A stretch of 64,000 nucleotides of DNA, taken from Felis catus (taxonomy: Eukaryota). The translations under genes and the position numbers were made by a program. The DNA lies in NCBI RefSeq assembly GCF_018350175.1, contig NC_058368.1, positions 2,108,001 through 2,172,000 of the forward strand. Direction: 5' to 3'. The notes beneath the pieces are model-generated. The model saw only the letters and a list, made by a program, of their open reading frames with translations. It had not been told where the DNA came from and did not search any database. This document shows positions 5,845-57,210 of this stretch, piece by piece; position 1 is the stretch's first letter; each line of letters begins with the position of its first letter.

Positions 5845-6330
5845 TTTTAATGTTTATTTATTTATTTTTGAGAGACAGAGAGAGAGAGGGCACAAAGTGG
5901 GGGAAAGGCAGAGAGAGAGAGAGAGTGAGAGAGAGACAGAATCCACAGCTGGCTCTAGACCCTGAGCTGTCATCACGGAGCCTGATGTGGGGCTCGAACT
6001 CATGAACCATGAGATCATGACCTGAGCCGAAGTTGGACACGTAACCAACTGAGCCACCCAGGTAACCCCAGACAAAACTGACTTTAAAACAAAGACTGCA
6101 GGGGCGCCTGGGTGGCGCAGTCGGTGAAGCGTCCGACTTCAGCCAGGTCACGATCTCGCGGTCCGTGAGTTCGAGCCCCACGTCGGGCTCTGGGCTGATG
6201 GCTCGGAGCCTGGAGCCTGCTTCTGATTCTGTGTCTCCCTCTCTCTCTCTGCCCCTCCCCCGTTCATGCTCTGTCTCTCTCTGTCCCAAAAATAAATAAA
6301 AAACGTTGAAAAAAAATTAAAAAAAAAAAA
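5845..6330. mobile_element. Head-to-head CAN-SINE pair: older (-) 5845-6070 and young felid SINE (+) 6101-6327
   Basis: tRNA-derived head GGGGCGCCTGGGTGGC, (CT)n and A tail; TSD AAAACAAAGACTGCA at 6086-6100 and 6328-6342; another (-) SINE at about 5510-5714. Confidence 0.93.
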
Positions 6331-10699: not shown

Positions 10700-11755
10700 A
10701 AAGATTTTATTTTTTTATTGTTATTTTTTAATGTTTACCTGTCTTTGAAAGAGAGAGAGAGAGAGCGAGCGAGTGGGAGAGGAGCAGAGAGAGAGGGGGA
10801 CAGAGGATCGGAAGCAGGCTCTGTGCTGACAGCAGAGAGCCCGATGTGGGGCTTGAACTCCCAAACCTCGAGACCATGACCAAGTCAAAGTCAGATGCTC
10901 AACTGGCTAGCCCCAGGTGCCCCTAAAATTTTTATTTTTAAGTCATCTCTATACACAACATTAGGCTCAAACTCACAACCTCGAGAGCAAGAGCTGCAAG
11001 CTCTACCGACTGGGCCAGCCACATGCCCCTCAAATTTTGTGTTGTTTTTTTTTTTTTTTTTATTTTTTTTTAAATTTTTTAACGTTTTTATTCATTTTTA
11101 AGACAGAGAGAAACACAGCATGAGCAGGGGAGGGGCAGGGGGAGGAGACACAGAATCCGAAGCAGGCTCCAGGCTCTGAGCTGCCAGCACAGAGCCTGAC
11201 GCGGGGCTCAAACTCACGGACTGTGAGATCATGACCTGAGCTGAAGTCCGACACTCAACTGACTGAGCCACCCAGGCGCCCCTGTGTTTTTTTTTTTTTT
11301 TTTAATTTTTTTTTTCAACGTTTATTTATTTTTGGGACAGAGAGAGACAGAGCATGAACGGGGGATGGGCAGAGAGAGAGGGAGACACAGAATCGGAAAC
11401 AGGCTCCAGGCTCCGAGCCATCAGCCCAGAGCCCCACACGGGGCTCGAACTCCCGGACCGCGAGATCGTGACCTGGCTGAAGTCGGACGCTTAACCGACT
11501 GCGCCACCCAGGCGCCCCTAAAGATTTTATTCTTTTAAATTTTTTTTTCAACGTTTTACCCATTTTTGGGACAGAGAGAGACAGAGCATGAACGGGGGAG
11601 GGGCAGAGAGAGAGGGAGACACAGAATCGGAAACAGGCTCCAGGCTCCGAGCCATCAGCCCAGAGCCCGACGCGGGGCTCAAACTCCCGGACCGCGAGAT
11701 CGTGACCTGGCTGAAGTCGGACGCTTCACCGACTGTGCCACCCAGGCGCCCCGCC
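10700..11755 (-). mobile_element. Stack of five same-orientation CAN-SINEs
   Basis: Copies at about 10720-10925, 10930-11030, 11060-11283, 11300-11520 and 11537-11752; last two nearly identical young felid type. Confidence 0.93.
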
Positions 11756-15494: not shown

Positions 15495-16040
15495 TTTTTT
15501 CTTTTAAAGTTTACTGATGTACTTTGAGAGGGGGTGGGGTGGGGAAGGGCAGAGAGAGAGAGGGAGAGAGAGAATCCCAAGCAGGCTCCGTGCCATCACC
15601 ACTCAATGCCACAAACCATGAGACCATGACCTGAGCCGAAATTGAGAGTTAGTTGCTTAACCGACTGAGCCACCCAGATGTCCCTGGACATTTCTAGAGA
15701 TATATTTTTACCTAGAAAATAAATGTGATGCTTTAATAAGATCACATAACTATGGAATGTGATGTTATTAATTTGATTTAAACATAAATTAGTGTCAGTT
15801 TAGGGGCGCCTGGGTGGCTCAGTCAGTTGAGCCTCCGACTTCAACTCAGGTCACCATCTCACAGACTGTGGGTTCCAGCCCCACGTCGGGCTCTGGGCTG
15901 ATGGCTCAGAGCCTGGAGCCTGCTTCCGATTCTCTGTCTCCCTGTCTCTCTGCCCCTCCCCGTTCATGCTCTGTCTCTCTCGGTCTCAAAAATAAATAAA
16001 CGGTAAAAAAAAAAAAAAAAAAAAAAAATTAAAAAAAATA
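15495..16040. mobile_element. CAN-SINEs: (-) about 15495-15685 and (+) about 15802-16040
   Basis: SINE consensus features. Confidence 0.9.
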
Positions 16041-16229
16041 AATACACATAAAGAAGTGTCAGTTTAAGACACAACTTCTTCTGGTCACGTGTTACAAAGA
16101 GTAAACAAGCCAAAGACCCCAGATCTACCGGCTACAGACCTAGAAGGGGAGGGAATGAGGAGGATATATTTTAACTGGCTTCCCGAAGAAAGGGCCCTTG
16201 TAAGAGAAAGCGACAAAAGTAATGAGGCC

Positions 16230-16780
16230 CAAGTGTGCGAGGCCAACCGGATCTCAGATTGCACTTGGCGACAGCAATGGCTGTAACGGGCTAGTCTCAC
16301 CTGAGAGACTGCGATACCGTGAACTTCCCGACTTCTTCCAAGTGCACGGCGACACGCGGCCCGTGGCAGGCGGCTGCGGAGACGTCGTGGACCCGCCGGG
16401 GCAGCCGGGCAGCCCGTGCAGGTGGCCGGGCAAACAGGCGCACTCGCACCAGCAGCCGGACAGCCCTCGCACCGCGACCGCGTCGCTCCTCCGCCTTGTA
16501 ACCCCTCGGCGCTTCCGGAAGCTTCCGCCCCAACAGCCGAGGCTCCTCACCAGCCAATCGCCTTTACCCAACGAGACTAAGGGAGCCCTCCTCCACCCCC
16601 CACCGCCCCTTGCGGGAGAAGCATCAGGAGTCACTGCGCCATTTGCAGACAAGCTACGGAGATCCCAGGAGTGGCGCGAAGCTGGGTTCGTGCCCCTGTG
16701 AGCATCTTATGTTGTCTGTGCCGTTTTCTGAGTCTGCAAGTGATCTTTCCGAGACCCCCGGACCCTGCCGTCTTGGCAGA
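16230..16780. promoter_or_regulatory. Orphan CpG-rich island
   Basis: High CpG density; palindromic ETS site CTTCCGGAAG about 16512-16521, GC box and CCAAT nearby; minus-strand donor at 16301. Confidence 0.55.
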
Positions 16781-16804
16781 CTGACATTGTACAAGTGAGC
16801 AGAT

Positions 16805-17260
16805 CTTTTTTTTTTTTAGTTTTCAGAAAGAGAGGGAGAGAGAGACAGCGCCAGCCAGGGAGAGCGGCAGAAGGAGAGAGAGAGAAAAAAAAATTTTTTT
16901 AACTTTTTTTTAATGGTTATTTATTTTTGAGAGAGAGACAGTGTGAACCAGGGAGGGGCAGAGAGAGAGAGAGGGAGACCCAGAATCGGAAGCAGGCTCC
17001 AGGCTCCGACCATCAGCACAGAGCCCGACGCGGGCTCGAACTCAAGAACCGTGAGGTCATGACCTGAGCTGAAGTCGGACGCTTAACCGACTGAGCGCCC
17101 CCCCCCCCCCCGCCGGGCGCCCCAAGAGAGAGAAAGTCTTAAGCAGGCTCCATGCCAGCATGGAGCCCATCGCGGAGCTCGATCCCTCGACGGGGAGATC
17201 GTGACCTGAGCTGAAATCAAGAGTTGGACACAAAAGCAACTGAGCCACCCAAGCGCCCCA
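16805..17260 (-). mobile_element. Nested CAN-SINEs (one copy about 16893-17122 inside another)
   Basis: Outer copy split at its (GA)n region. Confidence 0.85.
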
Positions 17261-17409
17261 GCGGATCTTTCTATTCCACACCATGATGTCAAAGCCAATA
17301 AAAGGCCAAAACCAAGCTCCCCAGACTGTGTCTCGCAAAACTGCTCTCACACAAATACGAAAAGCAGCTCCCCCATGACCCTCATGCCAAACACACATCA
17401 CTTACACAC

Positions 17410-17640
17410 CCTCGCTAAGTGCCAGGCCCTGTGGCACATGCTTCACCGATACCAAGTGGTCCCATTCAGGCCTCTGGGCAACCTCGCAAGGCTGCTGTGA
17501 TTCCCCCTCTGTCACAGATGAGGACGAGGCTGGGAGGGGCTCACTAGCTTCCCCCAAGGTCACACACCGGCTGGTGACTGAACCAGGAGCAAATCCAGGC
17601 CGTGGGACTCGGAGTCTCTGCTCTTAATCACTACAGGATA
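17410..17640 (-). mobile_element. MIR SINE
   Basis: acagatgaggacgaggct...cccaaggtcacac...tgctcttaatcactac core. Confidence 0.75.
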
Positions 17641-17822
17641 CTTCCTTTTATCCAAAAGTAAAAGGGAAAAAATGTCACCAGGTAGGGATGTACTTAAAAC
17701 CAAACAATGCATCGTCCCTCTGGGCTGCAAAGTGAATCCTCAGCACATCCTGAGCAACTTGCATAGGCAGCACTGGATGGGGACGGGTCACCATCCGGAT
17801 ACAATCAGAACGGTTTACATAG

Positions 17823-18270
17823 AGGGGCGCCTCGGGGGCTCAGTCGGTTGAGCGTCTGACTTTGGCTCCGGTCCTGACCCCACGGTTCGTGGGGCTCTGT
17901 GCTGACGGCTCGGAGCCTGGAGCCTGCTTCGGATTCTGTGTCTTCTTCTGTCTCTGCCCCTCCCCCATGCTCGCTCTCTCTTTTCTTTTCTTTCTTTTTT
18001 TTTTTTTAACATGTATTTATTTTTGAGACAGAGAGAGACAGAGCATGAACGGGGGAGGGGCAGAGAGAGAGGGAGACACAGCATCTGAAACGGGCTCCAG
18101 GCTCCGAGCTGTCAGCAAAGAGCCTGACCAGGGGCTCGAATTCACGGACCGCGAGATCATGACCCGAGCCGAAGTCGGAGGCTCAACCGACTGAGCCCCC
18201 CAGGCGCCCCCCCCCCTCTCTTTCAAAAATAAATGAACATTAAAAAATTTTTTTAATTAAAAAAAAAAAA
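17823..18270. mobile_element. (+) CAN-SINE with a (-) CAN-SINE (about 17995-18210) inserted before its tail
   Basis: Plus body 17823-17980, tail resumes at about 18215 (ctctctttcaaaaataaat). Confidence 0.85.
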
Positions 18271-18299
18271 AGATCAGTTACATGGAATAGCAGCCAGCA

Positions 18300-19100
18300 G
18301 CCCACACTGTAGTTGGAAGCGGTTGACCCCGTTCTTCCGAAAACGCCCACTGCCCGCTGGTGTAGGGGTCGGGGATAGTGGCCACGGGCGGGTCGCGCGT
18401 GACACCAAATTCGTTGGCAGCAAGAGCCACGGTTGAGACCGCGGGGAAGCGGGGAGGCGCCGCAGCCGGAGCCCCAGGCGAGACGCAGCTGTTCGGGGCC
18501 CCCGCGCGGCGAGGGCACGTTGGATCTTGCCCTTGGACGTCGCGGGACCGGGCGCGGGAGCCCGAGCCCCCAGGCCGGGGGGGAAACGTGCGTCGGCTCC
18601 CGGGCGCGGGTCGAAGGAGCCTTGCCACCCACGAGGGGCAGCGGCCGCGGCACCACCGCCCGGAGGCCCCAGGACCCTCGGGCCCCGCTCGGGCCTCCGC
18701 CGGCACGTAAACCCTCAGCAGATTCTCCCGCGGTCCCCGATCCGATCCCGGCTGGACACCTAGAGGAGGCGAGCGGGAGCCGGGGACTGGGGGGACCGGG
18801 CCGGGGCCCCTGCAGCAGCCCCGGGGAAGGAGGCGGGCAACCTCTGTCACATGGTCTGTGGCAGCTCTTGTCCAAAACGTCGCTCCCTTCCGCCTCCCCA
18901 GTGACGGTGTGAGTCGTGGGCCTCCCAGCACACGCTTGGAAAAACTGCGTTTCAAAGAGGGCGGGTAATGGGCCCAAACTGGCAGGAGCGGGGAGTGCTG
19001 CAGCTGCCCTTGAAACCCAGGACGCTGAAGGCCACACACAGACCTTCCCGTTGTGTCCTCCTGTCCAGGTGAGTGTGGATGGAGGCGGGGCCTGCTGTCT
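18300..19100. promoter_or_regulatory. Orphan CpG island
   Basis: Very GC/CpG-rich, non-repetitive; perfect plus-strand donor CAG|GTGAGT at 19068/19069. Confidence 0.6.
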
Positions 19101-24410: not shown

Positions 24411-25323
24411 TGGAAGGCGGCAGTGATAAACAGGGTTGAAGATTAAAAAAAAGAGGGAGAGAAAGCCTCACTATGTCTAGCACACCCCATAAAAATAACC
24501 TTTTTTGTAATCAGGAATTCACCTCTCTTAATTAGACTCTTCCTGTGGAAGGCTCCTGCCCTGGCCATGACCAGAGTTTCTCAATGACTGACCCCCAGGC
24601 CAACTGCATCGGGTCAACCCGGGAGTTCCCTGGGCCCCACCCCAAACCTACTCTCTGGAGGCGAACTTTCTGGAACACTTAAGTACATTTACTACTAACA
24701 TTAGGGGCAGTCCATGTTGCCTTCTGGGAGGCTTTTCTTTTCCTCCTAGCTATGAAGCTAGCTAAGTTTTAGAAAGCCCACAGAACTCAATGAGCATGTC
24801 CAGGTCCCAAGAGCATTCTGTTCAGCCAGAGGGGGCACTGACTTGCTCAGAGTGGCAGCTTGTGTTGTCAGAAGCAGGTGGGGACCTTCCACCCACTGGA
24901 GGCATCTGAGACTGGCCCAGCCTCCCTGTAAGCCCCAGTGCGTGTGTCCAAGTACAAAACAGGAAGCTGCCTTTGTCCTAAAGAATGACAAGTAGTCCAC
25001 TGTAGGCTTCCAGCTAATCATCCCCAATCATTACCCTCGGTAGAAATGACACATTTATAGTTACATACCTTTATACCTTAGCAGAGAATAAAATTACGCT
25101 GAGTTACAAATCAGATGGATATTAAAATTCTAAAGATGATGGGTACGAAGACAAATATACCATTATAAATGCTCGAGACTTAACTATTTTTTCTTTTTAA
25201 GGACAGGCAATTAAAAATTAAATTGGTAAAGAACAACAACAACAAAAGAACAGAGGCAAGTTATCTTGCCCACCAAAATAGTTGGAGCAAAAACGGAATC
25301 TGGTCTTAAAAATTCTTTGAACT

Positions 25324-25547
25324 GGGGCGCCTGGGTGGCGCAGTCGGTTAAGCGTCCGACTTCAGCCAGGTCACGATCTCGCGGTCCAGGAGTTCGAGCC
25401 CCGCGTCAGGCTCTGGGCTGATGGTTCAGAGCCTGGAGCCTGCTTCTGATTCTGTATCTCCCTCTCTCTCTCTGCTCCTCCCCCGTTCATGCTCTGTCTC
25501 TCTCTGTCCCAAAAATAAATAAAAAACGTTGAAAAAAATTAAAAAAA
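25324..25547 (+). mobile_element. Young felid CAN-SINE
   Basis: Near-consensus copy; TSD AAAATTCTTTGAACT at 25309-25323 and 25548-25562. Confidence 0.95.
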
Positions 25548-25664
25548 AAAATTCTTTGAACTTAGGGGCCTGGGTGGCTCAGTCAGTAAAGCGTCTGACT
25601 TCAGCTCAGGTCATGATCTCATGGCTCGTGAGTTCGAGCCCCATGTTGGGCTCTGTGCTGACGG

Positions 25665-26547
25665 CGTTATGCCCAGAATTCGTGATCCCCAAAGACCACC
25701 AGGGAGCCGAGTCCGATGCAAAAGCAAAGAGCCTTCATTCGAGCTAGCTCGAGCTCAATCACCTACCTGCACCGACGCAGCAGTGAGATGCCGGAGAGAG
25801 AGAGAGAGAGCGAGTTTCAAAAGCAAAGTTTTTAATGGGATCATGGCCTTAGCCGATTGGCTGGGGAAGGGTCATGGCCTCAGCCGATTGGCTAGGGAAG
25901 GGTTGTGGCCTCAGCTGATTGGCTGCCAAAGTGTGGTCCCAGATCTGCAATTATCAGCATCACCTGAAACTTGTTAAAAATGCAAATGTTGGGCCTGGTG
26001 GTCATAGACCCATTGAATCAGAAACTCTGGGGGTGGGGCTCAGCAATCTGTGTTTGAACAAGTCTTCCAGGAGATTCTGATGCACCTGAAGTGTAAGAAC
26101 CACTGTGTCTGAGGGTCTCTAACATGTTTGGCCTCAGTGTATACAGAACGTTTCTCACTGGTCACCTATGAACCATTGGCTGTCAGCCTTGCTGTGCTAT
26201 ATAAATACCTAGCACCAAACACCATCCCCAGAGACTCTGATGAGTTGGTTTGGGGAGGGGTAAAATGCTCCCAGGTCATTCTAAGCCTGGACAGGGTTGA
26301 GGGCTCCTGCCTCTGGCCCCTACCTGAGAGAAGCCCTCCCTCTTCCACTCACACTTTCCACGCCTCTCACGCTCCCCTTCCTCCCACCTCAGACTTCGGA
26401 AGAATGCATCAATCGGTAGCCTGCTTTCTTAGAAAACATAAGTTACTCAGGGGGAGGAGGTGTGGTCTGAGGTTTGAGCGGGAACCTCTTTCTGCGGCCA
26501 TGTTGGGGACACAGTCACTAGTCGGCCGGCCTAGGTCTGGTCTTTCA
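25665..26547 (-). mobile_element. Gammaretroviral-type (ERV1) solo LTR with internal host-derived segment
   Basis: Minus strand starts TGAAAGACC and ends CATAACG; 4-bp TSD ACGG/ACAG (25661-25664, 26548-26551); three tandem CCAAT units; degenerate TATA and poly(A) signals. Confidence 0.85.
25926..26105 (+). mobile_element. MER5A (hAT-Charlie) inside the LTR
   Basis: caaagtgtggtccc...atcagcatcacctg...gaatcagaaactctgggggtggggc...gaaccactg; left TIR clipped. Confidence 0.88.
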
Positions 26548-26604
26548 ACAGCTCAGAGCCTGGAGCCGGCTTCAGGTTCTGTGTCCACCTCTCTCTCTGC
26601 CTGC

Positions 26605-26635
<31 letters not shown>

Positions 26636-28305
26636 AAAAATTAATAAACATTAAAAAGATTAAAAAAATCTTTGAACTTAGAACCGTACAAATGACAAAG
26701 AAGGGGTGTCTGACACATTGGTAGCCTTGTACAGAGATTCCCCAGCCTCTTGAATTTCAAAGCTCATGAGCTTTTTTTGCTTGTTTGCTTCCCATGTGAC
26801 CCTAATGTGTAGCCAGGATTAGAAACTTCCGGTTTAGAGGTTTGAAAAAATACCACCTAAATGTAACACGCCAAGTCACCATTGTTGAAGTGATACGGAG
26901 TCCCCATTGTTTTCACAGCACGTCTCCACCGTCACAGCACTGCCGACAGCCCTCTGCTGTTTCCTGTCCCACAACGGTGTCTTCCTGGACCCGTGCCAGG
27001 GACCGTTGTCTTCACCTGGCCTGTAACCGCCCCCCTGCTTGCCGCCTTTCGGGAGCCTGGGATTATGGCTGATCCCCGCTCCTGAAAGGCGGCGACTTTC
27101 CCTGGGCGAAACCAGGGGTGCCCACTAGTTACCGTCTTCTCTCTTGGCCGCCATCTGGAAATGTCTTCCGACAAGCCTACCCGTTTACTTTTCCTCTTTT
27201 CCCGGCTGAGACCTTAGGATTTTGAAAGAAACCGATTTAAGTATATATTCTCAGGAACCTGAATTGGTTGCCAAGAATGCTGAGTCACACCCCCGATGAG
27301 GAGGATTTTCAGCAGGAAGAAATTTGCTCCTTCGCGTGCCTTCCTGTAACAGAAAACGTGACCGTTGCAGTAGGTGAGCAAATGCTTCCATTTTGAATAA
27401 GTTATGCCTCAATTCCGTACCACCTCATATTTTAAAATACGTTGTAACGTTTAGTCTCGGAACAAGACAGTGTCACAACCGTCAGGGTGATATTTGTGAT
27501 GCGGGAACGAACAAGAACACCCAAAGCTATCTTCTTTCTTGTTGAGAACAAAAGATACAAAGTGGGTGAATGACTCAGGTGGCCGGTGAGTAATGCCTGG
27601 CCTGGAGTGGTTGTTGCCATCCTTTCAACGTCCCAGGGGCACATTTGGTGCAGACACTGCATTTTTGGCGGTCCTGTGGCTGAAGACTCTTTCTCTATTT
27701 CCCTCCATCGGAGGCTACCGGGATCCGTTAGAGGCACTGCCCTGGACACCGGTCTGGGGCTGTAGGTGGCGTGGAGGCGGGCCCGCGGGGTCCACTCTGC
27801 TGGCGGCCGGTGTTCCTCCACACTAGTTCTGGGACACGTCCCGCCTCTTCTGCCCACCGCCCGCCTCGCTGGGCAGCTGCCCATTTTCCAGACCTGACTC
27901 ATCAGGCTTCTTGGTGGTCCTGCGAGTTTTCCAACTTCTTTTCGGTCAGTTCCTTTTCTTAACTTGGCTGGAGTCTTTTTTTACTCGCAGAAGAGCCCCA
28001 ACCACTACAGTTTCCTATTCCAATGAAAATAAAACTCACACTCCTGCCGTGGCCTCCAGCAGGTGAGTTGGTTCCCTGCCCACCTCTCAGCCTCATCTGA
28101 TTCCTTTCTCTGCTCTGTCCTCCCTACTCCCTCCTGGCTCTTTTCGGTCTCCAGTGCACTCTGGCTGAGGCACCCCAGCTCCATCCCGGAGCTCTTCTGC
28201 CGGGAACCCTCATTTTCCGGGTCTGCTCCCTTTGCCTCAACCAGTAGAATTTCAGAGCGCTTTGCCCTATTTGTTTCCGTGTGAAGGCACCATGATCTAA
28301 AATCC

Positions 28306-28309
<4 letters not shown>

Positions 28310-28348
<39 letters not shown>

Positions 28349-28350
28349 GT
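28310..28350. repeat. (GT)n microsatellite
   Basis: Direct observation. Confidence 0.95.
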
Positions 28351-28903
28351 CTTTGTGGTGTCTTTGTTGTCCTTCACTTCTTTTCTGTCTCCTCTACCCT
28401 AAGGTCCTCGTGGACAGGGAAGTCATCCTTCTTCACTACTCTATGCTTAGCACCTACGATGGTAGTAGTCATGCATAGGAGAAGGTGCTTAGTAAATAGC
28501 TGTTTAAATAAATGAGTCGGTTTCCAGTGTCACAGTACTTTTATTTGATCTTCACAATAATCTCGTGAGGTAAATGTATGCTTTATCATATCCATTTCTC
28601 AGGGAGGCCATGAGGCTTGCCTTCAGTCGGCAACTAACAGGGGAAGAACATGGCTCATATTAGTTTCGATTTCATTCCTTTTAAAAACCTTATGGAAAAA
28701 ATCTGATATTCTTCACACCATACCATACTTGATAAACATTAAAAAAAAGCATCGTAAAAAAGATATTACTTTTTCCTTCAAAATAGAAACTTCTAAAATA
28801 CCTAAGCACCAAATCCTCTCTTCACAATGTCCATGAAAACAATGCCAATTGTTCAAGCCATATGTTTTGGGACCTGCCCATTCATTAGATTAAAATAATG
28901 GCA

Positions 28904-32519: not shown

Positions 32520-35500
32520 CTTTTTAAATTTTAATTCCAATATAGCTAACATACAGTGTTATATTAGTTTCAGGTATACAGTACTGTGATTAAACAATTC
32601 TATACATTACTCAGTGCTGATAAATGTACTCTTAATCCCCTTCACCTATTTCACCCACTCCTATACCCACCTCCCCTCTGGTAACCATCAGTTTGTTCTC
32701 TATGGTTAAGACTCTGTTTTTTCCTTTGTCTCTTTTTTTCTTTGTTCATTTGTTTTTTCCTATCCTCCACAGATGGGTGAAGTCATATGGTATTTATCTT
32801 TCTCTGATGACTTGACTCCATTTAACATTATACTCATTAGATTCATCCATGTTGTTGCAAATGGCAAGATTTCATTCTTTTAATGACTGAATAATATTCC
32901 ATTTTGCATATATACCACATCTTTACCCATTCATTTATCAATGGACACTCGGGTTGCTTCCATAGTTGGCTATTGTAAATAATATGCTGCAATAAACATA
33001 GAGGTGCATATATGTTTTTGAATTAGACTTTTTGTATCATTTGGGTAAATACCCAATAGTGCAATTACTAGTTCATATGGTAATTCTATTTTTAATTTTT
33101 TGAGGAACCTCCATGCTGTTTTCCACAGCACCAGTTTACATTCCCACCAACAGTACAAGAGGGTCCCTTTTCCTCCACATCCTCACCAATAGTTGTTTCT
33201 TGTGTTTTTGATTTTAGTCATTCTGACAGGTGTGAGGTGGTATTTGTAGTGGTTTTGATTTGCATTTCTCTGATGATTAGTGATATTGACCATCTGTTCA
33301 TGTGTCTGTTGGCTATCTGCACGTCTTTTTTTGGTGGAATGTCTGTTCCTGTCTTTTGCTGATTGCTTAGTTGGATTATTTGGGTTCTGGGTGTTGAGTT
33401 TTATAAATTCTTTATATATTTTAGATATTAACTCTTCATCAGGTATGTCATTTGCAAATATCTCCCATTCAGTAGGTTGTCTTTTTGTTTTATTGTTTCC
33501 TTTCCTGTGTAGAAGCTTTTTATTTTGATGTAGTCCCAATAGTTTTTTTCCCTTCCCTTTTGTTTTCCTTGCCTCAGGAGACATATCTATAAAAATATAG
33601 CTACTGCTGTTGTCAGAGAAATTACTGCCTGTGCTCTCTTCTAGGATTTTTATGGTTTCAGGTTTCACATTTAGGTCTTTAATCCATTTTGAGTTTCTTT
33701 TTGTGTATGGTGTGAGAAAGTGGTCCAGTTTCATTATTTTGCATGTAGCCATCTGGTTTTCCCAACACCATTTGTTGAAGAGACTGTTTTTTTGGCATTA
33801 ATTAGTTAATCATATAATTGTGGGCTTATTTCTGGGCTTTCTATTCTGTTTCATTGATCTATGTGTCTATTTTTGTGCAACTACCATACTATTTTGATGA
33901 CTATGGCTTTATAATACAACTTAAAGTATGGAATTGTTATGCCTTCCAGTTCTGTTCTCCTTTTTCAGGATTGCTTTGGCTATTTGGGGCTTTTTGTGGT
34001 TCCATACAAATTTGAGAATTGTTTTAGCTCTGTGGAAAATGCTGGTGGTTATTTTGATAGGGATCAGATTGAATGTGCAGATTGCCTTGGGTAGTATAGA
34101 CATTTGCCAAAGCAAAAAAAAAAGGGGGGGGGTACATACATCCCAATATTTGTAACAGCATTATCAACAATAGCCAAATTATGGAAAGAGGCCAAGTGTC
34201 CATCTACTGATGAGTTGATAAAGAAGATATGGTATATAAATATACAATGGAATATTACTCGGCCATCAAAAAGAATAAAATCTTGCCATTTGCAATGACA
34301 TGGATAGAGCCAGAGTGTATTATGCTAAGTGAAATAAGTCAGTCAGAGAAAGAAATATACCATATTATTTCACTCATATGGAATTTAGGAAACAAAGCAG
34401 ATGAACATTTGGGAAGGGGGGAAAAAGAGAGAGGGAGACAGAAGTAACCCATAAGAGACTCTTAATGATAGAGAAGAAACTGAGGGTTGATGGAGGGAGG
34501 GAAGTGGGGAATGGGCTAAATGGGTGATGGGTATTAAGGAGGACATGTATTGTGATAAGCACTGGGAGTTATATGTAAGTGATGAATTCTACTCCTGAAA
34601 CCAGTATTTCACTATATGTTAACTAACTAGAATTTAAACAAAAATTTAGGGGAAAAAAACCCACAATATTTGTTCTTCCAATCCAGGAGCAGGGAATGTC
34701 TTACCATTTGTTTGTGTCATCTTCAATTTCTTTCATCAATGTTTTATAGTTTTCTGAATACATGTCTTTCACATCCTTGGTTAATTTATTCCTAGATATT
34801 TTATTATTTTTGGTGCAATTGTAAATGGGGATGTTTTCTTAATTTTTCTTTTTGCTGCTTCACTATAGTGTATAGAAATGCAATGGATTTCTGTATATTG
34901 ATTTTGTACACTGTGACCTTACTCGATTCACTTGCCAGTTCTAGTAGTTTTTTCGTGGAGCCTTTAGGGTTTCTGTATATAGTTTCATGTATCTGCAAAT
35001 AGTGAAAGTTTTACTTCTTCCTTACCAATTTGTATGGCTTTTATTTCTTTTTCTTGTCTGATTGCTGTGGCTAGAACTTCCAGTACTATGCTGAATAAAA
35101 TTAGTGAGAGTGGACATCCTTGTCTTGTTTCTGGTCTTAGGATACAATCTCTCCATTTTCCACCATTGGGTATGATGCTTACTGTGGTTTTTTTCATGTA
35201 TGGACTTTATTATGTTGAGGCATGTTCCCTCTAAACCTACTTTGTTAAAGGTTTTTAATCATGAAAGGATGTTGTACTTTGTCAAATACTTTTTCTGCAT
35301 CTATTGAAATGCCTGTATGGTTTTTGCCCTTTCTCTTCTTGATGTGTGTGTTTCAAACTGATTGATTTGTGAATACTGAACCACCTTTGCATCTCAGGAG
35401 GAAATCTCATTTGATCATGGCCAATGATTTTTTAATGTATTGTTGGATTTGGTTTGCTAATATTTTTTTTGAGGATTTTGCACCTATGTTCATCAAAGAT

Positions 35501-36369: not shown

Positions 36370-39045
36370 AGGGTTACTTCAATGAAAAAATCAAAGCACA
36401 GCTGGTGGAAGGTCCAAACCACCACTATGAGTAGGGACGTAAGGCAACCAGAGTTACAACAACAGAGAGCATGCAACACATTCCAAAAACACCTCCTGAA
36501 GGGCCAGGCCCTGGACAGTGTATGACCCCTTTTTAATATAGTAGTGCTCGCCGGTGCAGGACATGTAATAAGCTATTAAAACACATAAGGGGCAGAAAAC
36601 TAGCCAAAATGATGAAAAGGAAGAATTCTTCTCAAAAGAAATTCCAGGAAGAAATGACAGCTAGAGAATTGCTCAAAACAGATATAAACAATATATCTGA
36701 TCAAGAATTTAGGATAATAGTCATAAGATTAATAGCTGGGCTTGAAAAAAGCATAGAAGACAGCAGGGAATCTATTGCTCAGAGATCAAGGAACTATGAA
36801 ATAGTCACAACGAATTAAGAAATGCCATAAATGAGGTGCAAAATAAACTAGATGCAGTGACAGCAAGGATGCAGGAGGCAGAGGGGAGATTCAGTGAAAT
36901 AGAAGATAAAATTATGGAAAATGATGAAGCCAAGAAAAAGAGAAATAAGAAAATACTAGCCCCCAAGGGGAGGATTAGAGAACTAAGTGATTCAATGAAA
37001 TGTAATAATATCTGTATCATAGGAGTTCCAGAAGAAGATGAAAGAGAGAAAGGGGTAGAAGGTTTACTTGAACAAATTATAGTTGAGAACTTCTCTAATC
37101 TGGGGAAGGAAGCAGACATCCAAATCCAGGAGGCCCAGAGAACTCCCTTCAGAATCAACAAGGTCTTCACCATGGCGAATCATAATGAAACTGGCAAAAT
37201 ACAAAGCTAAAGAGAGGATTCTGAAAGCAGCTAGGGACAAACAGGCCTTAACTTACAAGGGTAGACACATAAATGTAGTAGCAGACCTGTCTACTGAAAC
37301 TTGGCAGGACAGAAGGGAGTGGCAGGAAATATTCAATGTGCTGAATAAGAAAAATATGTAGCCAAGAATCCTTTATCCAGCAAGGCTGTCATTCAGAATA
37401 GAAGGAGAGATAAAGGCTTTCCCAGACAAACAAAAACTGAAGAAGTTCATGACCACTAAACCAGACTTGCAAGAGGTCCTAAGGAGGACTCTGTGAGTGG
37501 AATGCTGCAAAGACTACAAAGGACCAGAGACATCACCACAAGCATGAAGCCTACAGATAACACAATGACACTAAATCTGTATCTTTCAATAATAACTCTG
37601 AATGTAAACGGACTAAATGCTCCAATCAAAAGCCATAGGGATCAGAATAGATAAAAAACTAAGATCCATCTATTTGCTGCCTACAAGAGACTCATTTTAG
37701 ACCTGAGGACACCTTCATATTGAAAGTGAGGGGAGGGAGAACTATCTATCATGCTACTGGAAGTCAAAAGAAAGCTGGAGTAGCCATACTTATATCAGAC
37801 AAACTAGACTTTCAATTAAAGGTTGTAACAAGAGATGAAGAAGGGCATTGTATCATGATTACGGGGTCTATCCTTCAAGAAGAGCTAACAATTGTCAGGT
37901 GTCTGGGTGGCTCAGTCGGTTAAGCATCTGATTTAGGTTCAGGTCATAATCTCTCAGTTCATGGGTTGGAGCCCCACACTGGGCTCTGTGCTGACAGTTT
38001 AGAGCCTGGAGCCTGCTTTGGATTCTGTGTCTCCCTCTCTGTCTGCCCCTCCTCTGCTCCTTCTCTCTCTTCCTCTCTCTCTCCTTCCCTCCCTCTCTCT
38101 CTCTCTCTCAAAAATGAATAAACATTTTTTAAAAATTAAAGATAAGCTTACAAAAAAGAGCTAACAATTGTAAATGTTTATGCCCTCAACTTGAAACACC
38201 AACTATATAAATCAATTAATCACCAACATAAGCAATCTTATTGATAAGAATATGGTAATTGCAGATGACTTTAATACTCCACTTACAGAAATGGGCCGAT
38301 CATCTGGGCAGATAAATCAATAAAGAAACAATGGCCTTGAATGATATGCTGAACCAGATAGACTTGACAGATTTATTCAGAACTTTTCATCCAAAACAGC
38401 ATTCTTCTCAAGTGCACGTGGAACATTCTCCAAGATAGATCACATACTGGGTCACAAATCAGCCCTCAATAAATATAAAAGACTTGAGATCATACCATGC
38501 ATACTTTCAGATCACAACACCATGGAACTACAAAAGACCCTGAATAGCCAAAGTAATGTTGAAAAAGAAAACCAAAGTGGGAGGCATCATAATCCTGGAC
38601 TTTAGCCTCTACTATAAAGCTAATCATCTACTAATCATCAAGACAGTATGGCACTGGCCTCAAAACGGACACATAGACCAACGGAGCAGAATAGAGAACC
38701 CAGAATTGGACCCACAAATATATACCCAACTAATCTTTGACAAAGTAGGAAAGAGTATCCAATGGAAAAAAGACAGTCTCTTTAGCAAATGGTGCTGGGA
38801 GAACTGGACAGCAGCATGCAGAAGAATGAAACTGGACCACATTCGTACACCATACACAAAAATAAACTCAAAATATATGAAAGACCTAAATGTGAGACAG
38901 GAAACCATCAAAACCCTAGAGGAGAAAACAGGCAACAACCTCTTTGGCCTCAGCTGCAGCAACTTCTTACTCAACATGTCTCCAAAGGCAAGGGAAATAA
39001 AAGCAAAAATGACCTATTGGGACTTCATCAAGATAAAAAGCTTCT
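36370..39045 (+). mobile_element. Carnivore/felid L1: 5' UTR, frameshifted ORF1, EN domain, large internal deletion, 3'-truncated; SINE at about 37898-38150
   Basis: ORF1 pieces 36609-37496, EN (QKKAGVAILISDKLDF), jump at about 38520 to post-RT ORF2 ([18 protein letters not shown]). Confidence 0.92.
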
Positions 39046-45760: not shown

Positions 45761-46179
45761 GCATTTACTGTTCAAGGGTGTGTTACACAACTTGTTATTC
45801 CTTTACTAAAGAGTTCGATACTTTGCTAATAAAGTCATGTTTTTGCTTACTTACCTCCTGTACCACTCGTAAGAGTTTTGCGTTTGTTAACTTATTCATT
45901 ACATGCGAAAAGTGCCACCGCAGGCTCCTTCGGCCCGCGAATATTTCAGGTAATAAATTCCCAGGCTACCAACGGCCTGCGAACGACCGCCTCCCTCAGA
46001 AGCTCCGCCCCGCGGACGCCAATGCCCGCCTTTTTCCTGAGGACGCAACACGCAGGCGCGGCCGGACCCGAGCTCCCGCGCCGCACAATGAGTTGCGCCT
46101 GCGCCGGCAAACGCCCCGCCCCTCCTCCTCTGGTCCTCTATAAAGCCTCGAGCTTCTCCTCGCGAGAGACTTCGTTCTC

Positions 46180-46308
46180 ATGCTCGCTGCAGGGGTCGGA
46201 GGTCAGAGCGAGCGTCTCGCGGGCCGTAGGAGGAAGATGGCGGTGGAGTCGCGCGTTACCCAGGAGGAAATTAAGAAGGAGCCGGAGAAACCGATCGATC
46301 GGGAGAAA
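46180..46308 (+). CDS. SAP18: SAP18 coding exon 1 (Sin3A-associated protein 18 kDa; ASAP/PSAP complex subunit)
   Basis: ATG 46180 gives MLAAGVGGQSERLAGRRRK-MAVESRVTQEEIKKEPEKPIDREK, matching the known SAP18 N-terminus; second in-frame ATG at 46237; donor AAA|GTATGG, phase 0. Confidence 0.97.
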
Positions 46309-46490
46309 GTATGGGGTCCGGAAAGAGGTGGAGGTGGGCCTGGCGGGGCGGAGAGCGCGGCCTGTGCCCGAAGGCGGCGGTATTCCAGCTCCCCGGGCGG
46401 TTCGGAGGCCGCGACGCCTCCGGAGGGGAAGGGAGCTCTGGGCTCGCAGCCGCTTTCTTTAACTTCTGCCCTTCCTCCTTTCGCCCCCAG

Positions 46491-46600
46491 ACGTGCCCGC
46501 TGCTGCTGCGTGTTTTCACCACCAATAACGGCCGCCACCACCGAATGGACGAATTCTCCCGCGGAAACGTACCGTCCAGCGAACTGCAGATCTACACTTG
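46491..46600 (+). CDS. SAP18: SAP18 coding exon 2
   Basis: Pyrimidine tract plus CAG acceptor; encodes TCPLLLRVFTTNNGRHHRMDEFSRGNVPSSELQIYT(W); donor TG|GTGAGA, 110 nt. Confidence 0.98.
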
Positions 46601-47234
46601 GTGAGAGTGCTGGGGCCGCGGGGGGCGCGGCCCTGGGGGGCGGTCGGACATTAAGTAATTCTCTGTGCCAGGAAAGAAGTGAACTCCGTGTTTTCGCTTT
46701 TTCCCCTCCACTCGGGGCCTTTGGGCCCAGCTCTCAGAAAGTTGGAGGTTTTACCTGGTAGGTAAAAGGGGCCTGTCTCGTAACACGTTTAAGGTGCAAA
46801 CTTTTTTGAGTTGTGAAAAATTGACAGACCCAAGATTACTGTCGCTTGTTGTGGCTGCTGGGTACAGAAATAATACGTAAAGAAAATGCGGCGGCCTTCT
46901 TTAAGGGGCTCATGGTCATGGGATAAAGGGAAGTAAAGGGAAGTCATGGGATATTTATCCTCGAGAGCATTTATGTGTGATATTAATCCTTAGGTGCCAT
47001 GCATTTAAAAAAAAAGAAGACAAAAAGGTTGATTTTTGATCTGGTGCTTAATGGAAAAGATTGTGATGCGTGTTCTGTAAAGCCTGCCCCTGAATATTTC
47101 TCTCATGGGTGGGTACCTTCCATACCCCCAAGTCTGTCCGGGGCCGGTACATACTGCAGACTTCTCTTTAGTGCTGCACGTATTTCCTTAGTTTCACATC
47201 ATAATGGCTGTTTAGTAGCAGAAAAAGGTTAATA

Positions 47235-51974: not shown

Positions 51975-52019
51975 ATTTTATTTACTATTCCTTGAATTAT
52001 TTTTCGTTCAGTTGTGTAA

Positions 52020-52025
52020 AATAAA
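52020..52025 (+). terminator. Candidate proximal poly(A) signal of SAP18
   Basis: AATAAA about 45 nt after the stop codon; a variant AATACA lies at 52203-52208. Confidence 0.55.
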
Positions 52026-55000
52026 CTTTTTCCTCCCCTCGTCATTGCCATTAAGCCTTTAAACTCTAAACGAATTGTAATGCGTCTCCTTAGGAATTAG
52101 ATTTGGCTGTGTTGGGTATTAACAGAACGTCCATGTTTCTGGTCCTTCCATAAAATAATGAAGAAAAGTGCTCTTAGCATCCGATGTAAAACTGTATTGT
52201 CAAATACATGTGTGCAATCAACCGGAGTGTGAAAGTTCATGGCGATGGGAACAGGGTTTAATTAGCATTTGGGGTTTATGCCGAGTAGTGGAGGATGTTG
52301 TGTTGAAGCCCGAGTGGGGCAGAGTGACACAGCCGTGGTATGGCACGAAATAGAGTGCGAGCTCGTGGCCCGGCCGCTCCGTGCAGGTAGAACTAGGGTG
52401 AGGTGGCTGGCAGAGGCGTCTTGCGGGAGCACGAGCCGAAGCGAGTTGAAGAAGCCATGTGTGCTGGAAGAGATCGCGCCGTCTGAATCAAGGTACGGTG
52501 ACATAACAAGTTAGAGGAGGATGGGTGCCACGGGGCGTTTTCTGTTTTAAAAATGGGGAGAATAGGCATTTTGAAGACAGGAACCCCTAGCGAGGAAATC
52601 AGGGTGAGAACTTAGGTGAGGGTGGAAAGGTTTCCCTTGAAGATCTGAAAATGGAGGGAGGGATGAAAGCAGAATCTTGAGACCTGGGAGCAGAGCCAGG
52701 GAGGAGGCCCAGTGGAACGAGTAGGAGATCGTCTCGCGTGCCGGTGAGGGGCCGGGGGGACGGGCTTGCGTCTGAGTATGTGGTTGGAGGGTCCGCGAGC
52801 GTGATGCTAAAGACCGGCTGGGATGACGTAATCTGGTTGCACCAGGAGCTCCGCAGCCGCGGACCCGTTGCTTGAATCTGTGTGTGTTTGTAAAAGAGGG
52901 ATGATGGCACACAGGATTAGGTGTCTGCAAAGGCCTGACCTGTAAGCCACCGTAAATCCTACCTGTTTTCCGTAAGGTCGAGTTTAGTCACACCTGGAAC
53001 CGGTCTTCCGTGGCACTCTTGTTCCCGTCTTGAAGTGTATGGACCATGTGGCCGCTGGGGAATAAGCCTAAATTAGGTTAGTGGATTACAGGAGGAAATG
53101 GAAGGCGTATATTCCAGAATGAAAGACGGGGTGCTGGCAGTGGATTTGAGAGTCCAACTGCAGTTTTGTACACACAGAAGCAGCCTTTTAAATGTGACGG
53201 GATGGGCCCCCCATCGCGAAGGCCGTCACCAGGCGGCAGAGACCAGCTTGGAGCTTAGATCTAATCTCGGGCCTCTTCTCTGAAGTTTACCCCAAACTCT
53301 TAGATTCTGTATTCATTCAGACTAGATGGACTTGAGTTCTGGAGATCATAACAGTAATTTCAACCTTTTTTTTTTTTTTTTTTTTTTTGAGAAGAAGAGC
53401 CATGGTCCCTTCCTGTGTGTGGGAAGAAACTGATTTACTGTGCAGACGGCAAAAGCAGGAACTAAATTCAGGACCTTCGTAAGACAGTGTTTCCCATGAT
53501 GTGAACCGCAGTGAGGGCTCTCCTGTAATTCCAGGTTATTGTCTTAGTAGTCTTAAAGTGGTTTATTTGCTTGGTTCCAACGTGGAATTTTCCCTTTAAA
53601 GATTGCGGTCTTCCACCGAAAGTACAGTTAAGGACTATCTAATGAACTTATTACTGACTATAATACTAAGAATCAGAAGACTTGTACTTAGTCCTTGTTT
53701 ACGTTTGGCTTTGGTAAGTATGGCTTTGGGTAAGTAACTGAGCCGCTTCCTTAAATACAAAATAGAAATAAATGGTCACCGTGACAGCACCGTGCTCAGT
53801 GCGTAGCATCCTGACTGCCTCGCTTGCTCTTAGGGTATTTTGGAGTTGAAATTTTCCCTTTGGAGTATGTGTTGTAGTTCACGTGTTGCCTGTAATAACT
53901 TTCCGGTTTCCTCACAGTGTATGTGAACTTGGCATTTTGAGGTATTTACCAGATGTTCAATAGGGAGTCTCGCCATTACATTCTATTTAGGTTTTACGAA
54001 ACACGACTGGGACCGTCCTATCCATAGTGATCCCTGGCTCAGGTGATGTTTGAGACAGCAGTGTGCACGTGTGTGTGAGCACGCGCAGGCCTGTGAGGGG
54101 GAGAGAGCTATTAAACTGTTAGCTTAGGTTGAAAATTCTAAAATTTAAGCGCTGTTATTCTTAAATAAAGAGCTGAACTTAGCCTGCCTCTTTCTATTCA
54201 ATCAGACACGAATTCCAGACTTGGTTTCGGGGAAACTGAGGAGGCAGCACCCGGAAACAGCTTCTCAGAATTACAGTCAGTGCTGGGCTGTGCCCGGCAC
54301 GAGGAACTTGACTGCGTTTCCTCACTGAACCTTGACAGCCAAGCTACGGAGACCGTGGTTCCATCTAGCGATCAGGTGGGGGCCTGCTTCAAGCGGGCAC
54401 CGCTGTGGGGCACGCGCATCCAGGTACCCAGCCAAAGGAAATGTACGTTCCCCCAAGTAGGGTTCTTTGGCGGTTTCTTTCGTTCTCGCCTCTGCAGCCT
54501 GGCTCCCACTCACGTTGCAGGGCTGCTTCCTGCAGGAAATCTCCCCGCCACAACTGGTTTCTCCCAGGGGCCAGTCGTCTGGAGTATGTAGACCGGTTTC
54601 AGTGTTTGTACAAACCAAGCCACCCATCGTGAGTGAAACCAGAGCTCCCAGCCGAGAGTTTCAGAGCAGCCGGACGGGGTCCGTGTGTTCCGATTTGTAT
54701 TTTGCTGCTTGACTGCGGGTGGTTTTGCCGATAGCTGTAGTTTCTTGGAGCCCACAGTGGAACCAAACCCGAAGGAAGTCTGTTTCTCAGGGATTTTCTC
54801 CCCCCCCCCCCCCCCCGTAATCCCTGGCAGGGGAATAAGCTCAAGCCTAAAAAGCAATTTTAATACTAAATACTAAGAAAATAGTTTTGTTAAACAGAAA
54901 TCCTGATCCTGGGAATGTTATGCAGAATTTATTATAGAAAGGTGTTATTACAAAACCAACCTTGAGTTGTGGGGAGGAGCCAATGAAATGCTGCTGAGTG

Positions 55001-56179
55001 TGCGTCATGGTGAATATTCAGTTAAAGTGCTGTTTACTAAGGAAGAAGAAAAAAAGCATTTGTGGCCCCTTGTTTTGTGCCTTCGGTGGTCAGAATTTCC
55101 TGTCCAGGCTAGCAGCTCCTAAGAAAAGTGCAGATGGGAGTTGATGAAATTAAAGCAGTTTCAATTGTGAATGAGGTGAACCTCCCGAGGCATTTTTCAC
55201 ACCTGTAAATTGTAGAGTCCCTGTTGGGAGTTGTTGGAATCTGTGCTGTTCCTGATTACTTCAGCTCCCCTCGTGCTTCTCAGTACTTTGCCGGGACAAA
55301 ATACATGTAAGAGTGCCCGTCGGATAGCAGGTGCCGTGGGCCTGGCAGTACACCAATAAACCTGAGCCACATACGGATCCTTAGAGAGTCTTCCAGTCTA
55401 GGGGTGCCTGGCAGCCGAGTCAGTTGAGCATCTGGCTTCGGCTCCGGTCACGATCTCACAGCTCGGTTTGTGAGGTCGAGCCCCGCGTCGGACTCCGTGC
55501 TGAGCGCTCGGAGCCTGGAGTCCGCTTCCGATTCTGTCTCCCTCTCTCTCTGCCCCTCCCCCGTTCACACTCTGTGTCTCTCTTTCTCTCTCTCTCCTTC
55601 AAAAATAAAAAATTTTTTTTAAAACTCTTCCAGTCTAGTCACGGAAGTGTAACTGGTAACAGGTGGGTCGGAAGGTGTCACGACGAAGGTAATCACTGCT
55701 GAAAATGGCACTGGAGCTTGTCCAGCTCCTAAGGGCAGCTGGGTCGGATTTCTGTTCCCCATGTGGGATCTGGCAAGGGCCAAGGCACGGATGTGAGGAG
55801 GTAGGCGCTGAAGTGCCTGGTGGCTGGAGTAGATACAAAGGAAATGTCTGATGCCACTGCGGTAACTTAGGTGCGAATCGCAGTAGCGGCAGAGGGCAGA
55901 GGGGAGGGAACACGTCCAGAGATGTGAGGCCAGCAGAAAGAGTTGGAAGCGGGATCTGGGCTGGGACGCGGGACCTGGCAAAGGAAAGTCAGGCACTAGA
56001 GTAGAGCCACGGTTTACTCGTGTGCAAGTTGGCATGAGAGTACTCGATCCTTCGTAGGAGTTGATCCAAGAATTGGTTCACGTGTTTAGAACTGTGCCTC
56101 GCATGGTAAGACGTTTACCACTGTTTCAGTAGCTTAAGTTGCTGGGTGTCTACATGACGAACAAAAGCAACCAAGGTAC

Positions 56180-57210
56180 TTGCCGTCTTCGAGCTCGCGG
56201 TCCGTTCGTAGCCACAAAAACGTACACCCAAGCATACCACAAATTCTGCCGCCCGTCGTGAAGGGTGAAAATACGGTGTCAGAAAGAACCAGGCGGGAGG
56301 GCCTCCGGGACCGGGGAGAGAGTGACACTGACCCCGAGACCTGAGGCAGATGGCCCCAAACGCCTCTGAAATGGCCAGGAAACTCCAGCTAGCGAGGCAG
56401 AGGAGCTTGCGAAGCATTTAACCGAAAGGCCCCAGGCCGGAGCTGGCCGGCTGCAGGCCCGGCCGGAAGATCGGGCTCGGCGCCGCCACCCCGCGACTCG
56501 CGCTCTCCGGCCGGGGCTCCGTCCCCTTCGCGGTGAGAAGATGGCGGCTGGCAGCCGCGGCCGTGCGTCCCGGCACGTCGAGGCAATGGGCGCGCGGTTT
56601 TGTTCACCGGCGGTTCCCGGAAGTCCCGGGATCGGCCCTCGCAGGCTTGACGTGGGCCAAAGGCCCGGCGCCGGCCGCTGTGGCCCGGGGCTCGGCTGTG
56701 AGTTCTTCCGGGAAACCTGGAATGCCGTTTCCCCTTAAAGGCCGGTGGTGGGCGGACTGACGCGGAACCTCCAGCCACCGGAGGGCATGCGCTAAGCGGG
56801 GCGGCCGGGGAAAGTTCCTTCGAGAGCAGTGTGTGGGGGGCCCCGCGGCAGGAAGGGGCGGAAAAGGCGAGTTGGCCTGTGCGGCGAGAGCACGAGCTGC
56901 GAGCGAAGAGGGAGAAGTGGCCCGAGGTCAGATCGCATAGGGCCGCGGAGGCCGCCTCAGAGATCTTGGGTTTCATTTCGAAAGCACAGGGGGACACTGA
57001 AGGGTTTTAAGCCAGGAGACAGGCTTGCCGGATCCTAACCCTCGGAGCTTAATACACTGGAAGCATCGCAGCGCGAAGTAACGGGAACTAGGGCCATGGG
57101 GGAAAAGTGGAAAGGGTCGGGGGGAGAAGTTTCGGGCACATGGAAGTCGAGGGGCCGCCGCGAAAAAAGCAGGCGACCGGAAACGCTTACTTCGCTCTTT
57201 ATTTCGCATC
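56180..57210. promoter_or_regulatory. Orphan CpG island between SAP18 and SKA3 3' ends
   Basis: About 1 kb CpG-dense; several CCGGAA ETS cores, GGGGCGG boxes, GAAGATGGCGGC (YY1/TISU) near 56537-56548. Confidence 0.65.

Follow-up and report, generated by a model that had tools for sequence, protein, structure and literature searches.

Templated insertions of distant host DNA have been described as a class of genomic event (TSI/TSIP; Onozawa and Aplan, PMC5110952). Those of class 2 are defined by the absence of both a poly(A) tract and a target-site duplication, and their donors lie at distant, often intronic or intergenic, loci; inserts of 73–414 bp were recovered in experiments, and some 25–30 templated insertions, both classes together, are reported per person (PMC5110952). 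Endogenous retroviruses (ERVs), for their part, integrate with target-site duplications of 4–6 bp (PMC13756887), and both CCAAT/NF-Y boxes and length change have been described in the LTRs of the pig gammaretrovirus PERV (PMC10968565). Among old DNA transposons, MER5A1 is a palindromic eutherian element of 160 bp (PMC5424272), and MER5A and MER5B are listed with hAT-group repeats (PMC5753468). One study describes, in sirenians only, a MER5A insertion that interrupts a solo LTR (PMC3758187). Here we describe a locus in a 64-kb stretch of cat DNA (the window) at which a retroviral LTR lies inside a carnivore SINE and itself encloses a segment of old host DNA with MER5-type remains.

Two carnivore tRNA-derived SINEs stand in tandem on the plus strand from position 25324, and the second of them, which begins at 25565, is interrupted exactly by an 883-bp insert (25665–26547). 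Its 5′ half (25565–25664) is collinear with other SINE copies, and its 3′ half (26548–26670), which carries a CT and A-rich tail, opens with the 4 nt that form the right copy of the target duplication of the LTR. The type is probably that of the felid CAN-SINE. When a single copy of these 4 nt was retained, the halves aligned gaplessly across the junction with 19 of the 25 junction-spanning SINE hits of the window, and when both copies were retained a 4-nt gap at the junction was required in 21 of 23 hits. Moreover, the split SINE has a 15-nt target-site duplication of its own on the plus strand (25548–25562 and 26664–26678; 14/15 identical), which brackets both halves, and the halves are therefore those of a single copy. 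An origin of the halves from different SINE copies, which the earlier note had named as fatal to its reading, is ruled out by this shared duplication together with the gapless, collinear alignment. Thus, a single integration event that duplicated 4 nt brought in the insert, and the earlier placement of 883 bp inside one SINE is confirmed. The 4-bp target duplication proposed at the same time is present in imperfect form, since only three of its four bases agree (ACGG on the left, at 25661–25664, and ACAG on the right). Other SINE copies show the one form or the other, and the difference is the pattern expected from CpG decay. With 4 nt, 3/4 identical, the duplication falls in the ERV range of 4–6 bp given above.

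The split SINE differs from the majority of 21 SINE copies in the window at 15 of 139 positions, its nearest copy being 87.8% identical. The other, younger SINE of the tandem, which lies directly 5′ of it in its 5′ target site (25324–25551, plus strand), has a nearest copy at 94.9% and is 95% identical to the copy at 6101. The two share a target-site word: the same 15 nt occur three times, at 25309, 25548 and 26664, and because of this threefold occurrence one L1-endonuclease site is concluded to have served two SINE insertions, the older SINE being struck later by the LTR. Elsewhere in the window, at 11065–11752, three SINE copies, of which two are 93–96% alike, lie head to tail on the minus strand, spaced 237 and 234 bp apart.

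On both sides the insert is flanked by SINE sequence only, and it is therefore a solo element. Its minus strand opens with TGAAAGACC, in agreement with the earlier description of a gammaretroviral-type start, and its ends resemble those of a gammaretrovirus-type (ERV1-like) LTR, to which they are provisionally assigned. The distal part of U3 (26391–26547, minus strand; CpG o/e 0.58) begins with this word, and the opposite end of the insert (25665–25925, minus strand; CpG o/e 0.62) was provisionally assigned, from motif order, to the promoter-proximal U3, R and U5. Along the minus strand, these last 261 nt of the insert present three CCAAT boxes (25922, 25891 and 25860), an AT-rich TATA-like word at 25836 and a degenerate poly(A) signal at 25739, which is the order of U3, R and U5. 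The CCAAT boxes belong to a 31-bp unit repeated in 2.7 tandem copies (25841–25925, minus strand; period 31, 88% matches), and the array is cut at the junction with the host segment. A perfect 14-nt palindrome (25739–25752) is located in the R-U5 part, beside the poly(A) signal.

The LTR had been called young in the earlier note, which overstates the case. Its target duplication is imperfect, the poly(A) signal is one base off consensus, and of the terminal dinucleotides that of the U3 end is canonical and that of the U5 end is off by one base; of the 12 terminal bases, 4 are complementary. Since the duplication, one end, the poly(A) signal and the array have all decayed, the integration cannot be very recent, and "young" presumably means of felid-lineage age rather than recent. 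Words taken from the LTR gave no match in viral contigs, where a 17-nt word led to 26 loci with a longest alignment of 32 nt, at the level of chance, and none in metagenome contigs. Six such words were also absent from the paper texts searched, and four were absent from the 8 readable supplementary files of the FcERV-gamma6 paper (PMC4643047).

The middle of the LTR differs sharply from its ends. The segment at 25926–26390 (no strand assigned), whose right border is uncertain between 26350 and 26390 and which thus amounts to about 430–460 bases, has a CpG o/e of 0.10 and occurs once in the window. It holds 3 CpG in 464 nt, versus 18 in 419 nt for the two LTR ends together (Fisher p 5e-4), and the stretch 25927–26350, a width picked after the data had been seen, holds a single one (P 0.0003 under uniform placement). 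Because of this composition, a CpG-poor middle between CpG-rich ends, the conclusion is supported that the middle is foreign in origin, old host DNA copied into the LTR. The earlier claim that host DNA was captured into the LTR is thereby upheld, on the CpG-poor middle, the clipped MER5A-type element and the further old DNA alongside it. Neither a second copy nor a donor of any part of the insert was detected within the 64-kb window. Furthermore, the interval 25920–26420 contains no A/T run of at least 6, and no duplication beyond chance was found at the edges of the middle, where the longest shared word is 6 nt, a length reached by 59% of 2000 random pairs. A search of 25990–26547 against Rfam returned three matches with E values of 2–5, far below gathering scores and attributable to chance, and a 203-aa frame over 26113–26724 matched no Pfam family. 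One Rfam match, at 26300–26337, covers the opening 10 nt of the mir-378 model and a portion of its 3′ arm; it scored 15 bits where the cutoff is 80 (E 4.9), and it was likewise taken as chance.

Within this segment, the interval 25927–26105 (no strand assigned) comprises 179 bp with no CpG, and its halves are palindromic, with a score of 31 that none of 500 block shuffles equalled. Size and palindromy fit a short MITE-like body of about 160–190 bp, and the interval is a putative MER5A-type non-autonomous hAT element from which some 10 bp are absent at the left end. The left-clipped MER5A placed in the middle by the earlier note is therefore present as a palindromic, clipped element, with MER5A as its putative name. 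A second, more decayed MER5-type piece, putatively MER5B-like, is tentatively placed by this likeness at about 26174–26309 (no strand assigned), a wider interval than the 26200–26290 first proposed. On the opposite strand it matches the first element at 17 of 20 nt (1 of 500 shuffles as good), which weakly suggests kinship. On the same strand 130 of 500 shuffles were as good; its own halves are non-palindromic (383 of 500 shuffles) and its ends complementary at 11 of 20 positions. An nhmmer search of the window with both pieces yielded no further copy, the best outside matches having E values of 1.5–4.1. A third short element at about 26111–26178 was considered and rejected, its terminal matches of 9 and 10 out of 14 being within the background of the window.

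MER5A is far older than felid SINEs, and an element of this kind that had transposed would show a terminal repeat at either end and a target duplication of 8 bp. At this locus, the 14 nt at the left-end position match the element's own right end at 7 of 14 only, the first 10 of them being the CCAAT unit of the LTR; there is no 8-bp duplication, and the element is accompanied by about 280 bp of other CpG-poor DNA. On the clipped left end, the old DNA alongside and the lack of CpG in the element, transposition of MER5A into this place is rejected, in agreement with the earlier note, which had argued from age. The age given in support of that argument, before the placental radiation, may be too strict; since a MER5A insertion in a solo LTR is described in sirenians only (PMC3758187), a MER5A within an LTR has a precedent and the activity of MER5A may have outlasted the first placental splits, and what stands is the great age relative to the felid SINEs. 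Nor is the inversion of ages surprising in itself, since the templated insertion of host DNA from distant loci is already on record (PMC5110952).

On balance, we favour by some measure an origin of the segment as a one-off class 2 templated insertion, made by break repair after integration of the provirus, over its capture by the virus. The carnivore SINE inserted first, as the sequence records. A gammaretrovirus-type provirus would then have integrated into it with a 4-nt duplication, of which the split and the duplication are seen directly, and would have collapsed to a solo LTR, as established ERV biology leads one to expect. Later, a germ-line double-strand break in U3 would have been repaired, probably with loss of some U3, by a patch of 430–460 bp copied from some distant place in the host genome where two old MER5 fossils chanced to lie. 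The timing and the repair pathway are what we infer, and the foreign origin is given by the composition. That the patch starts 10 bp inside MER5A would reflect copying from an arbitrary or weakly homologous point rather than from a transposon end, and the outcome would be a single-locus fossil of which no function is expected.

Several observations bear on this repair origin. The segment has neither a poly(A) tract nor a target duplication, the two absences by which class 2 insertions are recognized, and because such events are common, one of them would be expected in some LTR of a genome. At the left junction the CCAAT unit of the LTR stands in register with the terminal repeat of the element (7/14 to its own right end), a weak hint that switching may have been guided by homology; this patchy likeness fits repair and template switching by reverse transcriptase equally. 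Against repair, the segment lies in U3, just upstream of the intact CCAAT/TATA block and adjoining the tandem array, which is where viral LTRs vary most, and it is somewhat longer than the experimental inserts (73–414 bp).

The main competitor is capture by the virus itself, which we consider possible and clearly less probable: while copying U3, reverse transcriptase would have jumped from the viral RNA to a host transcript packaged with it and then returned, and the LTR thus lengthened would have spread as a subfamily. That this longer LTR was reproduced at either end of the provirus, so that the present locus is one solo LTR of this subfamily, is proposed with the same reserve. The position of the segment in U3, with both LTR ends, the CCAAT array and R-U5 still in order, agrees with such a course. 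A host-derived insertion in U3 has reportedly been described in polytropic mouse ERVs. This precedent was looked for in the accessible text of PMC6116186 and was not found there. ERVs do take up host RNA (PMC4299795), feline gammaretroviruses recombine with unrelated endogenous sequence, as in the FeLV X-region (PMC10878261), and envelope-less felid ERVs attained hundreds of copies (PMC4643047). However, two switches would be needed, to a non-coding, CpG-free host RNA that replaced enhancer DNA; the ERV captures described in the available text of PMC4299795 concern mRNA taken up into the internal region, and the authors regard them as uncommon; no such felid LTR was found in the literature searched; and the window, which is a weak test, contains no second copy. 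The weighing of repair, to which we incline, against capture, which we hold at a distinctly lower level, follows from base rates rather than from a direct test.

Capture might have taken a milder or a bolder form. The milder one, capture in felids followed by a multi-copy subfamily, carries about the whole of the limited credence that we give to viral capture. In the bolder form, a replicating virus would have captured the segment, possibly in an earlier host species, and then brought it into the felid germ line, which we regard as improbable. It is equally doubtful that a stretch of non-coding host DNA, with its two extinct DNA transposons, was multiplied by means of the LTR and perhaps carried by it from one mammal species to another. 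Gammaretroviruses related to this type did cross between felids, vesper bats and pangolins (PMC4643047), and if cross-species capture were true, the segment should be closer to the orthologous locus of another mammal than to that of the cat.

Ectopic gene conversion or break-induced copying, in which a broken LTR invaded a truncated relative, copied its host flank and returned, appears unlikely, if marginally less so than the cross-species form just mentioned. It would account for a host flank inside an LTR without any RNA; however, the left junction lies inside U3 rather than at an LTR end, neither a primer-binding site nor a polypurine tract has left an identifiable remnant, and the process calls for either a special donor or two deletions. 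The latter applies to a variant that we rate as equally unlikely, the collapse by two deletions of a provirus that contained host DNA internally.

We give little credit to an artefact, whether an assembly chimera of an LTR copy and another locus or a middle that is simply native U3. The provisional repeat names, and junctions that are known from the assembly, would leave room for it; both outer junctions and the target duplication of the SINE are nevertheless consistent, and the sharp contrast in CpG and the palindromic element speak for a foreign middle. Additionally, 260 words sampled from 24900–27300 were sought in 24 public DNA runs (11 studies, one organism), and the region was present in 22 of them, the other two being unindexed, the share of sampled words being 0.75–0.80 in 20 runs and 0.52 in two. 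Of the 31-mers of this region, a share of no more than 0.62 falls to the unique flanks and the SINEs, and because 0.75–0.80 exceeds this figure those 20 runs must contain some of the insert, a result that argues against an artefact and concerns the words present and not the junctions. If even sampling is assumed, the shares fit three models, namely loss of the words touching the SINEs (0.78 left), loss of those touching the middle (0.79 left) and a divergence of 0.7–0.9% (0.80–0.76 left).

Finally, an L1-mediated insertion in trans into the LTR (a class 1 templated insertion or an orphan 3′ transduction) is the least probable origin. Traces of L1 and SINE activity are plentiful in the window, yet the segment has no poly(A/T) run of at least 6, no target duplication around it, where one of 5 bp or more would be expected, and no TTTT/A site at its left junction.

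Other features of the window may be recorded here. A 243-bp inverted pair (33557–33799 and 38761–39003; 78% complementary) lies in an AT-rich, CpG-poor zone with its members about 5 kb apart, and these are possibly L1 fragments in opposite orientation. An L1 ORF1 piece (36800–37207) is located between them and was the sole match when 24 of the 54 long frames of the window were compared with Pfam. The CpG o/e of the whole window is high (0.49), and CpG-island-like stretches (o/e 0.6–0.98) with long open frames that lack a Pfam family occur at 16001–19000, 46001–47000, 52001–53000 and 56001–57000. A strong excess of T over A marks 27800–28500, where the AT skew falls to -0.53.

In the literature searched, no felid LTR with MER5A in U3 was found; Repbase and Dfam entries and subscription papers lay outside this search and may already hold one. 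If the segment is single-copy, the locus would provide a clean and datable case, from a carnivore, of templated insertion in the germ line, and would caution that the nesting order of repeats does not always equal their relative age. If it is multi-copy, an LTR subfamily would have spread fossils of DNA transposons around a genome long after the death of their transposase, and from the captured segment one could read in which tissue, and perhaps in which host species, the virus had replicated.

Compared with described systems, the sirenian case shares with the present locus a MER5A inside a solo LTR. There, however, the LTR is ancient and the MER5A is described as an insertion (PMC3758187), whereas here the host of the LTR is a carnivore-specific SINE and the MER5A is clipped and accompanied by flanking DNA. 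The solo LTRs of felid gammaretrovirus-like ERVs (FcERV gamma, e.g. FcERV-gamma6; PMC4643047) resemble the insert in their short target duplication, CCAAT repeats and felid-type genome, but the insert is about twice the length of its LTR parts alone. Host captures by ERVs, such as crocodilian KIT-ligand and nectin3 (PMC4299795) and the FeLV X-region (PMC10878261), likewise place foreign sequence inside a retroviral element. Those captures concern the internal region and are multi-copy or in a replicating virus, while here the sequence is in U3, non-coding and known in one copy. The closest likeness in kind is to class 2 templated insertions (PMC5110952), with which the segment shares a size of a few hundred bases, distant non-coding host DNA, arbitrary ends and the lack of both poly(A) and target duplication, these last two negative features being the sole ground for its tentative assignment to the class. 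It differs from them in being felid, probably fixed and old, and in having as acceptor an LTR inside a SINE. In summary, the nested structure is real and would work like a templated insertion, a known kind of event.
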